A stretch of DNA of 64,000 nt, taken from the sequence record MH051917. One strand, given 5' to 3'. Numbering within the stretch: position 1 is the first letter of the stretch; every line of letters starts with the position of its first letter. Of the stretch, positions 8,713 through 10,848 are shown in pieces. The notes beneath the pieces were generated by a model. That model searched no databases. It was not told where the DNA came from and saw only the letters and a program-made list of their open reading frames with translations. Source of the stretch: Enterobacteria phage vB_EcoM_IME341. Position numbers and translations under genes: made by a program.

Positions 8713-8815
8713 GAATTATGTGATATTATTACTCTATCATTAATACCCTCTATTACCAAAGGTTCTTCCCTCAAAGAATCTTTCATAATAGAATTAATCA
8801 ACTAATGAGGAAAAT

Positions 8816-9235
8816 ATGATTACTCCAATTCTTATCGATTTTAACAGCGAAACCTGGGAAAATCCAGAAATCGCTACAGAAGTATTTTATAACTGCCAAC
8901 CATCTGAAATTAACTATAATTGTTTTGACGGGAATTTAATCCGTATTTGGTTAAAATCTAAAGAACACTCGGCCCATATTGTGGCTACAGTCTGTGATGA
9001 CGAGTTATATGAAATGTGTTCCGGCGTAACAGAATTTGATGCCGATTTAATTGCTGGATGGTTATTCACTGTTTTATTTGAAGATGTTTGGTCACCAGGC
9101 GGTGAACAATTCTGTTTCAGCGAGTTTGGTAAAAAGTTAGGTGTTTTTTCTTCGGATGACACCAATTTTAATATTTCGCCTGATATTTGTGTACACTATG
9201 ATGGCCCTTCCGAAGGTTGGAATTGGTCTAGTTAA
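8816..9235 (+). CDS. hypothetical protein
   Basis: 139 aa ORF with SD GAGGAA upstream. Confidence 0.5.
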   Translation: MITPILIDFNSETWENPEIATEVFYNCQPSEINYNCFDGNLIRIWLKSKEHSAHIVATVCDDELYEMCSGVTEFDADLIAGWLFTVLFEDVWSPGGEQFCFSEFGKKLGVFSSDDTNFNISPDICVHYDGPSEGWNWSS

Positions 9236-9242
9236 GAATTAA

Positions 9243-9319
9243 GGCCCTGTAGCTCAATGGTTAGCAGCAGTCCCCTCATAAGGGAAAGGTTACCAGTTCA
9301 AATCTGGTCTGGGTCACCA
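9243..9319 (+). tRNA. tRNA with CAU anticodon (Met, or Ile2 lysidine-type)
   Basis: GGCCCTG acceptor, D-arm GCTCAATGGTTAGC, anticodon loop CTCATAA, T-arm ACCAG-TTCAAAT-CTGGT, 3' CCA; one acceptor mismatch. Confidence 0.7.
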
Positions 9320-9387
9320 ACTTTGATTAGGTAGAGCAGTCAACTTCTCCATGAATAAATATCTATATAAAATTCATGGAGAAAATT

Positions 9388-10047
9388 ATGCTTTGCCAAT
9401 ATTGTTCTAAAGAATGTAAAAACTTAAATTCACTAAAGCAACATGAAAAACGGTGCAAATCTAACCCAAATGGATTAGATATGAGCGGCCCTAATAACCC
9501 TCGTTTCGGTCTTAAAGGTGTCAATCAATTTACAAAAGCCAAAGAACTAGGTAAAGAAATAAAGGTTTCTGATAAAACCAGAGAAAAACTTAGAAAAGCC
9601 AATACAGGATATGTATGGTCTAATGAACGCAAAGAAGCACATTCTAAAAGAATGCGGCAAGCTGTTCTTGATAATCCTGATTCATATTCTGCTTCTAATG
9701 TTTCTGGTCGAGTAAAAACATATGAGTTTGACGGATTTAAATTTAAAGGGACTTGGGAATTAAAAGTTGCTAAGTTTTTAAAAGAACACAATATCAAATA
9801 TACTAATGAAATAAAGCCAATTCCTTACGAATGGGAAGGTTCAGAACATCTCTATTTTCCTGATTTTTATTTACCCACTTATGATTTTTATATAGAAGTC
9901 AAAGGATATAAAAGAGATAGAGACCTTTGTAAATGGAAAGCTTTAGAAAATTTGATAGTTTTAGAAAAAGATGAGATTTCCGATTTGTCTTGTCTTTTAA
10001 ATAAATTACGTCCCGCTGGTGTAATGGATAGCATACGATCCTTCTAA
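9388..10047 (+). CDS. putative freestanding homing-endonuclease-like protein
   Basis: N-terminal Cys cluster CQYCSKEC...HEKRC, NUMOD-like basic repeats, C-terminal PD-(D/E)xK-like FPDF...YIEVKG; inserted between tRNAs like seg genes in T4; ORF-track start 9376 lies inside a hairpin. Confidence 0.5.
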   Translation: MLCQYCSKECKNLNSLKQHEKRCKSNPNGLDMSGPNNPRFGLKGVNQFTKAKELGKEIKVSDKTREKLRKANTGYVWSNERKEAHSKRMRQAVLDNPDSYSASNVSGRVKTYEFDGFKFKGTWELKVAKFLKEHNIKYTNEIKPIPYEWEGSEHLYFPDFYLPTYDFYIEVKGYKRDRDLCKWKALENLIVLEKDEISDLSCLLNKLRPAGVMDSIRSF

Positions 10048-10084
10048 GTTTGCGGTCCTGGTTCGATCCCAGGGCGGGATACCA
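10010..10084 (+). tRNA. tRNA-Arg (anticodon UCU)
   Basis: Acceptor GTCCCGC/GCGGGAT, T-arm CCTGG-TTCGATC-CCAGG, anticodon loop with TCT, 3' CCA; first ~38 nt overlap the endonuclease ORF 3' end. Confidence 0.75.
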
Positions 10085-10342
10085 AATGAAGACTATTATA
10101 TAGTCAAGCCGTCGTATGAAGACTGATTGCCAGCATTCACCGGCGCAACAAACAAGAAACCGGGTCGCTACCGGTAAGTCGTCGGACTGAAGTTCTCTGG
10201 AGTATAGTTCCTCCCACAGTTGTACTGTGTTCTGGTTCTTTACTATCACAGCTGAAACGGCGCACCGAACACTTGCCTAGCAGGTGGAACCCCGACAAGG
10301 TTGCCGCAAGGCATAGCCCCTTCCGAAAGGTTGGGGCTTTTT
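10085..10342 (+). ncRNA. candidate structured small RNA(s) downstream of tRNAs
   Basis: About 260 nt without ORF, GC-richer than surroundings, ends in strong terminator; T4 encodes stable RNAs C/D of unknown function in its tRNA cluster. Confidence 0.3.
10315..10342 (+). terminator. intrinsic terminator
   Basis: agcccc-ttccgaaaggtt-ggggct followed by TTTTT. Confidence 0.65.
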
Positions 10343-10383
10343 GGCATAATAAATAGATAAGTTAATTAACTTAGGAAATAATA

Positions 10384-10848
10384 ATGAAAACTTACAATGA
10401 ATTTTTGACTGAACAATCTAGTTCAGATGTAAAAGCCGCTGCGATTGCAGCAATTCAAGCAGGTAAATATTCTTACAAAGACGCCTCTGATGAAGAACGT
10501 TTCCGTTTTATTAAAGATTTTAAAGCCGAAGGTTTTACTAATGCTAATACTGTTAGCCGAGTTTTTAAAAGCCTAGCTGCATCAGGTGAATTGTTCCAGA
10601 AAGCTACAGGTAAAGCACCTGCGCCAAAAGCGGACCCTAAAGCCGCTCAAGAAAAAAATATCGCCAAAGGAATTATTTCTAAGTATGAAGCAATTCTTAA
10701 AGAGCTTTTAGTAATCAAAACAGAAGGCCAGAAACTGGCACGGGCACATAGCTTCAAAGATAATCCGCATGCTCACGACTTAGAGTATGTTGAAGATATT
10801 CAGAAAATCATCAAAGACCGTATCTGGTCTGCTAAACAAATCAAATAA
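10384..10848 (+). CDS. internal-protein-like protein with capsid-targeting sequence
   Basis: N-terminus [11 protein letters not shown]; 154 aa; flanked by two near-identical terminators. Confidence 0.65.
   Translation: MKTYNEFLTEQSSSDVKAAAIAAIQAGKYSYKDASDEERFRFIKDFKAEGFTNANTVSRVFKSLAASGELFQKATGKAPAPKADPKAAQEKNIAKGIISKYEAILKELLVIKTEGQKLARAHSFKDNPHAHDLEYVEDIQKIIKDRIWSAKQIK

Follow-up and report, generated by a model that had tools for sequence, protein, structure and literature searches.

A putative free-standing PD-(D/E)xK homing endonuclease gene between two tRNA genes of coliphage vB_EcoM_IME341 and the association of its family with phage tRNA genes

We analyzed a stretch of 64,000 nucleotides (nt) from the T4-like coliphage vB_EcoM_IME341 (MH051917), a Dhakavirus-like T4 relative, and focused within this stretch (hereafter the window) on an open reading frame (ORF) of 219 amino acids (aa) that occupies positions 9388-10047, stop codon included, between two tRNA genes; the ORF and all features of its locus located below lie on the + strand. 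Sequence comparison indicates that this ORF probably encodes a site-specific DNA endonuclease acting as a free-standing homing endonuclease, a reading to which we assign a probability of roughly 0.72 and of which the predicted architecture of the protein, a CCHC zinc finger and NUMOD-like helices for recognition followed by a Mg-dependent PD-(D/E)xK domain, forms a part. The anatomy of the gene, its catalytic residues, its presence/absence polymorphism, the purifying selection acting on it, and its association with tRNA genes were all observed directly. A sequence-only reading of the same DNA had proposed a homing endonuclease gene of the PD-(D/E)xK type at this position, a proposal now supported by the insertion polymorphism, the domains, and the likely restraint on translation, with the activity of the enzyme being predicted.

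ARAGORN called two tRNA genes in the whole 64 kb, both of which were also matched by Rfam and both of which are the flanking genes named in the sequence-only reading: an intact tRNA-Met(CAU) at 9243-9319 (Rfam tRNA, 53.9 bits), equal to the T6 allele and forming the left flank of the insertion, and an intact tRNA-Arg(UCU) at 10010-10084, forming the right flank and found by blastn to be 100% identical between relatives that carry the homing endonuclease gene (HEG+) and relatives that lack it (HEG-). The 219-aa ORF described between these genes was recovered at 9388-10047. A mechanical ORF listing opens the frame earlier (9376-10047), at an upstream in-frame ATG at 9376 that falls within a hairpin and has no Shine-Dalgarno (SD) sequence; the real start is most likely the ATG at 9388, because GGAG (9378-9381, in the 3' arm of the hairpin) stands 6 nt ahead of it and homologues begin M-x-C-x-x-C.

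The distribution of the ORF among related phages was that of an inserted element. The closest DNA match over positions 8800-10400 was Escherichia phage EcWhh-1 (Dhakavirus; 96.3%), and among approximately 726 phage records matching the flanks the ORF was present only in EcWhh-1, F25, and HEMP5. Dhakavirus UGJNEcP3 has an empty site made up of tRNA-Met, the 5 nt ACTAT, and tRNA-Arg, and this 5-nt spacer in relatives without the ORF therefore defines an insertion of ~685 nt. The inserted cassette spans 9323-10009 (the HEG-less relatives read ACCA-ACTAT-GTCCCGC there), as determined from an alignment of the window, EcWhh-1, F25, UGJNEcP3, and LHE83; comparison with ORF-less relatives, which had been proposed as a check, thus both confirms that the gene was inserted between the tRNA genes and fixes the site. 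In Tequatrovirus F25 the same gene (97.7% aa identity) occupies the same junction, while the DNA beyond both tRNA genes cannot be aligned. Presence/absence polymorphism at one site with conserved flanks, the pattern expected of homing, was found in the T-even phages, in Lazarusvirus, and in Kuttervirus: of 271 records from Kuttervirus 6 have the ORF, as do ~9 of >35 from Lazarusvirus, and the flanks of HEG+ and HEG- Lazarusvirus records are 97-99.7% identical. The ratio of nonsynonymous to synonymous substitution rates (dN/dS) among the window, EcWhh-1, F25, and an 85%-identical relative was 0.05-0.12, indicating purifying selection.

The slot between tRNA-Met and tRNA-Arg is also occupied by other genes in related phages. 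It holds a GIY-YIG SegB-like gene in LHE83 (L004:2629-3294), segB in T6 (L066:522-1187), and in VR7 (L065:819-1373) a T5orf172/MUG113-domain gene, none of them related to the IME341 ORF; the slot is a hotspot for nuclease genes. In a mixed infection, the IME341 enzyme would cleave a genome that lacks the gene, within or beside its tRNA region, and repair would then copy the cassette, with the near-identical tRNA genes serving as homology arms. Candidate targets in the T-even phages would be the Met|Arg junction, interrupted by the insertion, or the anticodon region of a tRNA(CAU) gene, as in the relatives described below.

The protein itself combines a nuclease domain with recognition modules, as homing endonucleases do (a finger, a NUMOD-like region, and a PD-(D/E)xK domain). 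The cluster of Cys residues noted earlier at the N-terminus proved to be a conserved CCHC zinc finger (C3/C6/H19/C23; 9394-9456), in which C3, C6, and H19 are invariant and C23 near-invariant in the family alignment; the finger had weak C2H2-type Pfam matches and was modeled with a predicted local distance difference test (pLDDT) score of 95-97. It is followed by a basic helical linker (residues ~40-110; 9505-9717), with AlphaFold2 helices at 47-53, 62-72, and 79-95, that is NUMOD3-like and probably binds DNA. The NUMOD-like repeats previously suggested for this region are supported only by way of the relatives, since among 68 family members NUMOD3 profiles matched 12 and DUF7487 matched 33; the IME341 protein itself had no NUMOD3 match. 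The C-terminal part (9739-9987) is a T7-endonuclease-I-type nuclease domain of the PD-(D/E)xK class. Its residues E124 (codon 9757-9759), D159 (9862-9864), E170 (9895-9897), and K172 (9901-9903) align with the catalytic E20/D55/E65/K67 of T7 endonuclease I and do not vary across the family alignment; the FPDF...EVKG stretch singled out in the sequence-only reading as PD-(D/E)xK-like supplies the counterparts of D55/E65/K67, to which E124 can now be added as that of E20.

The only solved structures matched by sequence were T7 endonuclease I entries (E 1e-5 when the protein was searched singly, 2e-6 for a 68-sequence profile), and Phage_endo_I (PF05367) was matched by 50 of 68 relatives at E<0.01. 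The match in PHROGs was phrog_15137 'endonuclease' (E 5e-39), 468 homologues were found, and an NCBIfam search of the protein gave no useful match. A confident AlphaFold model built from the family alignment (mean pLDDT 88.7) showed a small finger at the N-terminus, helices in the middle, and a nuclease core of alpha/beta fold, with the final 12 residues disordered; Foldseek placed it, among viral models, next to phage proteins labeled endonuclease I, NUMOD3, C2H2 finger, or homing endonuclease. A GIY-YIG domain was not matched in the IME341 protein by Pfam, in agreement with the earlier remark that it does not resemble SegB; the ORF found at the same site in LHE83 is of the GIY-YIG class.

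With T7 endonuclease I as its sole sequence-detectable solved relative, and with several GenBank records labeling such proteins 'endonuclease I' or 'Holliday junction resolvase', the IME341 protein might be taken for a Holliday-junction resolvase or debranching enzyme whose place is in recombination or packaging and which is neither sequence-specific nor mobile. The likeness to T7 endonuclease I (gp3) lies in the conserved E/D/E/K tetrad. T7 endonuclease I is a domain-swapped dimer of ~150 aa that resolves junctions and has no added DNA-binding modules, whereas the IME341 protein adds an N-terminal recognition region of 115 aa, an extension of the zinc-finger/NUMOD type that homing endonucleases typically have, and falls short of the Pfam cut-off; the fold search, moreover, did not return T7 endonuclease I as a neighbor of the IME341 protein. 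The gene is distributed sporadically at a fixed tRNA site, an essential resolvase would not be missing from 99% of relatives, and T4-like phages already have endonuclease VII (gp49) for junction resolution. We regard a resolvase as highly improbable because of the reader domains and the sporadic distribution.

The start of the ORF is predicted to be enclosed in a two-tier RNA structure (9330-9397), in which an inner 12-bp hairpin over the SD sequence (9345-9356/9372-9383, with a 15-nt loop) is surrounded by an outer 9-bp helix (9330-9338/9389-9397) that pairs the U and the G of the AUG. The inverted repeat ctccatgaat/attcatggag, which the sequence-only reading had described as burying the SD sequence, was found at 9347-9356/9372-9381, and the helix of which it is the core is larger than had been noted. 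The computed fold had a minimum free energy of -29.2 kcal/mol (z = -5.9), none of 200 shuffled sequences was as stable, and the pairing probability of the SD sequence was 0.98, compared with a median of 0.52 at the starts of 60 further ORFs of the window that bear an SD sequence. In Karamvirus CkP1 an equivalent hairpin is formed by a different stem sequence with compensating changes. Across the 5' arm and the loop lies a T4-late-promoter-like box, AATAAATA (9354-9361), which agrees with TATAAATA at 7 of 8 positions. A late-promoter-like element had been noted previously, but as TATATAAA (9364-9371); it is AATAAATA that the relatives share. Boxes of the late type (ATAAATA) were enriched in the family: 10 of 19 members have one at 13-34 nt ahead of the start, compared with 10% of control ORF starts; a perfect TATAAATA stands at the same distance in Acinetobacter phage AM101 and several metagenomic members, and the + strand of the window contains only four perfect copies.

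Taken together with the precedents in T4, these features suggest how expression of the gene may be restrained. In a long tRNA-precursor transcript the SD sequence and the AUG would be locked in the two-tier hairpin and translation would be blocked, while a late RNA initiated at ~9367, ~6 nt past the box, would lose the 5' arms of both helices and would hence be translatable; the predicted fold thus sequesters SD and AUG in upstream-initiated transcripts in the manner of the T4 late-transcript scheme. If RNase P cut the precursor at the tRNA-Arg 5' end, the last 12 codons and the stop would be lost as well, which would lower the yield further. Both the use of a promoter at 9354-9361 and the RNase P effect are what we infer from this arrangement. 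Restraint by a hairpin over the ribosome-binding site (RBS) has been documented or proposed for T4 segB, I-TevI/II/III, and Aeh1 mobE (PMC2988022, PMC2330249), the hairpin/late-promoter scheme has been reviewed for I-TevI-III, segB, and mobE (PMC2988022), and both restraints, hairpin and RNase P-type truncation, have been put forward for the T4 segB gene, which lies at this tRNA-Arg (PMC2330249). The T4-style translational restraint put forward in the sequence-only reading is therefore supported by the predicted hairpin and by the segB precedent (PMC2988022, PMC2330249).

The 3' end of the ORF runs into tRNA-Arg. As had been described, its last 38 nt are the 5' part of that gene: the read-through tail RPAGVMDSIRSF and the stop (10009-10047) are encoded by the tRNA-Arg 5' half, and the TAA at 10045-10047 corresponds to T36-A37-A38 of the tRNA, that is, to the last anticodon base and two loop bases. 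The family alignment is variable beyond residue ~200, the pLDDT of the final block is ~51, and the 12-residue tail is not conserved. In a metagenomic locus that encodes an 85%-identical protein (L062), the ORF has its own TAA stop 18 nt before an identical tRNA-Arg; this locus shares the upstream hairpin and the tRNA remnant described below with the window, which is short of ~27 nt before tRNA-Arg. We had considered the overlap as a designed feature and downgraded that idea, given that L062 stops on its own TAA before the tRNA. Sequence comparison instead indicates a lineage-specific indel of ~27 nt, an accident with possible side effects.

A C-terminus that was changed by an indel and now enters tRNA-Arg, an RBS that is almost fully sequestered, and a copy in two pieces in Aeromonas phage PX29 could be understood if the gene were an inactive relic of an old invasion, no longer expressed or mobile. 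We find this explanation scarcely tenable: the frame is intact, all catalytic residues and zinc ligands are retained, the low dN/dS applies also between copies that share the indel, near-identical copies are present in two phage genera, and the changed tail lies outside the conserved domain. The PX29 member (L008:2501-3129) matches in two pieces, of which only the 3' part is annotated, and it resembles a decaying copy in a predicted split tRNA.

Between tRNA-Met and the ORF we found a further element that was missing from the sequence-only reading, a putative fossil of a tRNA(CAU)-type 5' half, 26 nt long and extending from the D-loop to the anticodon loop (TTGATTAGGTAGAGCAGTCAACTTCT; 9323-9348). 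It aligns to positions ~14-36 of intact tRNA-Met(CAU) genes from HEG-less phages and is almost identical to an element upstream of a distant homologue (L013), and complete tRNA 5' halves precede the ORF in L005, L006, L007, L023, L059, and L063; neither ARAGORN nor Rfam called a tRNA gene in the fossil region. Since a third tRNA is absent from this position in HEG-less T-even phages, the fossil appears to have come along with the cassette, and part of it now builds the outer helix over the start codon. Two other origins were rejected. A 5' half of the local tRNA-Arg, suggested by the CTTCT contained in the fossil, showed no pairing or alignment, and the CTCC that follows is the anti-SD; a truncated T6-type tRNA-Tyr has only ATTAGG and GTAGAG in common with the fossil, and L013 and tRNA(CAU) fit better.

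The link to tRNA genes extends to the whole family, a point that the sequence-only reading, correct in placing this ORF between tRNA genes, did not contain and that is added here. At 50% identity the family comprises 339 clusters at E<=1e-30 and 2,680 clusters at E<=1e-10. All annotated phage relatives with >40% identity (Karamvirus CkP1, Acinetobacter AM101, Kuttervirus PhaxI, Aeromonas PX29, Vibrio Kuja, and Stenotrophomonas IME13) lie within tRNA clusters, and 19 of 20 full-length IMG/VR matches have tRNA genes in the locus on the ORF strand, often with tRNA-Met(CAT) directly downstream. The ORF ends inside, or <=12 nt from, a same-strand tRNA gene in 18 of 28 loci, and in such loci the tRNA supplies the stop codon as T8-A9-G10 or T36-A37-A38. 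In most members a tRNA 5' half, broken off in the anticodon loop, precedes the ORF. The clearest arrangement is that of AM101 (L006), where 664-666 nt, made up of a hairpin and the ORF, break a tRNA-Met(CAT) gene apart after CTCAT, and where the two halves are 100% identical to the intact 77-nt tRNA-Met(CAT) of AB-Navy1, with a 2-nt AT ambiguity at the junction; tRNA(CAU) genes split in the anticodon loop were also found in CkP1 and two metagenomic relatives. As far as these sequences indicate, the family specializes on phage tRNA genes, mainly tRNA(CAU).

Insertion just after the anticodon, the classical position of tRNA introns, in AM101, L063, and L059 raised the question of whether the cassette is, or was, a self-splicing intron in the anticodon loop from which the split tRNAs are matured, the ORF being an intron-encoded endonuclease; I-Ssp6803I, which is also a PD-(D/E)xK enzyme, offers a parallel (PMC3424549). 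Rfam detected no group I or group II intron or other ribozyme at E<=1 in window positions 9000-10500, L005, L006, or L008, the non-coding part of the 664-666-nt AM101 insert amounts to only ~40 nt, and no choice of splice sites in this insert gives a U before the 5' splice site together with a terminal intron G. The window, for its part, has two complete flanking tRNAs and a fossil that lacks a 3' partner. A group I or II intron was accordingly rejected, Rfam having found tRNAs only and the group I splice rules being violated, and we consider the intron-encoded alternative very unlikely. Little credence can likewise be given to a ribozyme-free variant, in which the split-tRNA cassette would be a tRNA intervening sequence and the AM101 tRNA(CAU) gene would still yield a working tRNA: protein enzymes would excise the HEG insert, a T4-type polynucleotide kinase/phosphatase and RNA ligase, the pair with which these phages mend breaks in anticodon loops, would rejoin the halves, and the 5'-half fossil of IME341 would be a remnant of such an arrangement. 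The full identity of both AM101 halves to the intact gene is compatible with this variant.

Kuttervirus PhaxI shows a different form of invasion. Relative to the intact tRNA-Met of Kuttervirus BSP101, nt 28-70 are replaced by the hairpin, the ORF, a complete tRNA-Met, and ~60 bases, and the imported tRNA-Met (region L007:3124-3263) differs in the D-arm and the anticodon stem. Since the PhaxI cassette brings its own tRNA-Met and deletes nt 28-70 of the resident gene, one tRNA allele is exchanged for another by the nuclease gene. CBA120 (NC_016570.1) has, at the tRNA-Met site that the family member occupies in PhaxI, an annotated putative HNH homing endonuclease, and the two phages are thus another case of different nuclease families at one tRNA site.

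That a cassette delivers another tRNA-Met allele with a changed anticodon stem could also mean that the nuclease has been domesticated, its breaks driving recombination, amplification, and allele exchange in tRNA clusters, for example in escape from host anticodon nucleases. T6 SegB amplifies tRNA-Tyr and other anti-defense genes at the same locus (PMC13096335), purifying selection on the IME341 gene is strong, and in Vibrio phage Kuja the cluster contains a tRNA-Arg duplicated around another nuclease gene. Against these points stand the rarity of the gene, which is present in 3 of ~726 T-even records and comparably sparse in Kuttervirus and Lazarusvirus, a pattern of selfish invaders, and the Acinetobacter insertion, which destroys a tRNA gene. 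We consider domestication unlikely, and take selfish spread to be the main force because the gene is rare; a domesticated role is nevertheless compatible with selfish mobility and does not exclude a free-standing homing endonuclease. The Kuja locus (L009:282-1860), which shortly precedes the family member, consists of two tRNA-Arg copies that enclose a gene for an HNH endonuclease and recalls the nuclease-driven tRNA duplication reported for SegB.

Several results weigh against the interpretation of the ORF as a homing endonuclease regulated in the T4 manner. The IME341 protein scored 24.4 for Phage_endo_I (PF05367), below the Pfam cut-off of 29.1, and Foldseek against the PDB returned nothing better than E 0.03. 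The promoter box AATAAATA has only 7 of 8 consensus positions, and an 8-mer of this kind is expected by chance in an AT-rich window of 64 kb; SD sequestration across the family was modestly above controls (p = 0.02). The overlap with tRNA-Arg being an indel accident, any regulatory role of it is therefore secondary. A resistant-allele test comparing HEG+ with HEG- T-even phages found tRNA-Met and tRNA-Arg to be identical or to differ by 1-2 nt in a manner uncorrelated with the HEG, so that no resistant allele marks a target in the T-even phages.

Comparison with other known systems shows likenesses as well as differences. SegB of T4/T6 occupies the same slot immediately upstream of the same tRNA-Arg(UCU); both genes are free-standing and sporadic, both have the RBS and start in a hairpin, and in both the ORF end abuts the tRNA-Arg processing site (PMC2330249). 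SegB recognizes sequence that is conserved among tRNA genes and shows a statistical association with them (PMC13096335). The domain order differs, SegB having an N-terminal GIY-YIG domain and a C-terminal NUMOD and the IME341 protein an N-terminal finger/NUMOD region and a C-terminal PD-(D/E)xK domain, and SegB targets the T-psi-C motif whereas the insertion points of the IME341-ORF family lie in the anticodon loop. The EDxHD enzymes (I-Bth0305I, phage U5 Hef) share with the IME341 protein a NUMOD-type N-terminus and a C-terminal restriction-fold nuclease, and they too occur as free-standing genes in T4-like phages (PMC3239194); the arrangement of the IME341 protein thus fits the EDxHD scheme of a NUMOD region ahead of a Vsr-like fold. 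The IME341 family differs in keeping the lysine of D...ExK and in having E124, D159, E170, K172, D179, and K182 but no His among the invariant residues of the nuclease domain, and the EDxHD structure 3r3p was not matched by sequence, profile included.

The gene for I-Ssp6803I sits in the group I intron of Synechocystis tRNA-fMet. It interrupts a CAU tRNA gene at the anticodon loop, as some members of the IME341 family do, and it encodes a PD-(D/E)xK enzyme (PMC3424549); I-Ssp6803I is a small single-domain protein in a self-splicing intron, whereas the IME341 family has no detectable intron. Neither membership in the I-Ssp6803I-type family (PF11645) by sequence or fold nor residence in a group I intron was found for the IME341 ORF. 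Dassa et al. reportedly described in 2009 'fractured genes', in which free-standing HEGs lie in host genes between the halves of split inteins. The likeness is that a HEG inside a host gene physically splits it; the difference is that split inteins restore the protein there, whereas no restoring mechanism is detectable for the split tRNA here.

Three further observations concern neighboring sequences. A structured non-coding stretch (10085-10345) follows tRNA-Arg directly, at the place of the stable species I/II RNAs in T4; it is kept in most T-even matches, has a fold z of -2.45 and a terminator-like hairpin at ~10314-10341 (GCCCCUUCCGAAAGGUUGGGGCUUUUU), and matched no Rfam family. On the other side of the locus, a 139-aa ORF at 8816-9235 (VR7 gp149-like) is present in EcWhh-1, VR7, and L062 and is replaced by another small ORF in UGJNEcP3, which places a mosaic boundary at the tRNA-Met gene. 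Beside the split tRNA of AM101 lie a CTA-anticodon tRNA (L006:2333-2407), annotated as tRNA-Pyl and in effect amber-reading, and a nearby small gene resembling an RF-1 domain or peptidyl-tRNA hydrolase (L006:3762-3998), an odd pairing for a lytic phage.

On its own, the IME341 locus is probably an ordinary free-standing HEG in a T-even tRNA hotspot, with predicted regulation of the expected T4 kind. What is new, as judged from sequence, is an uncharacterized family that appears to invade the anticodon loop of tRNA(CAU) genes with no detectable intron and sometimes with a replacement tRNA; a description of this family as a T7-endonuclease-I-type homing endonuclease was not found in the searchable literature. 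Homing endonucleases fall in a handful of catalytic families, to which a T7-endonuclease-I-type nuclease with a finger/NUMOD-like reader would add an uncharacterized and common one. Phage tRNAs are counter-measures to host anticodon nucleases, and the family would represent a second, SegB-independent way of shuffling the tRNA clusters of phages. It further suggests that a HEG can fracture a dispensable gene directly, with neither intron nor intein as a refuge, and, on the practical side, its members may, given their predicted activity, provide long-site nucleases with a conserved and predictable class of target.

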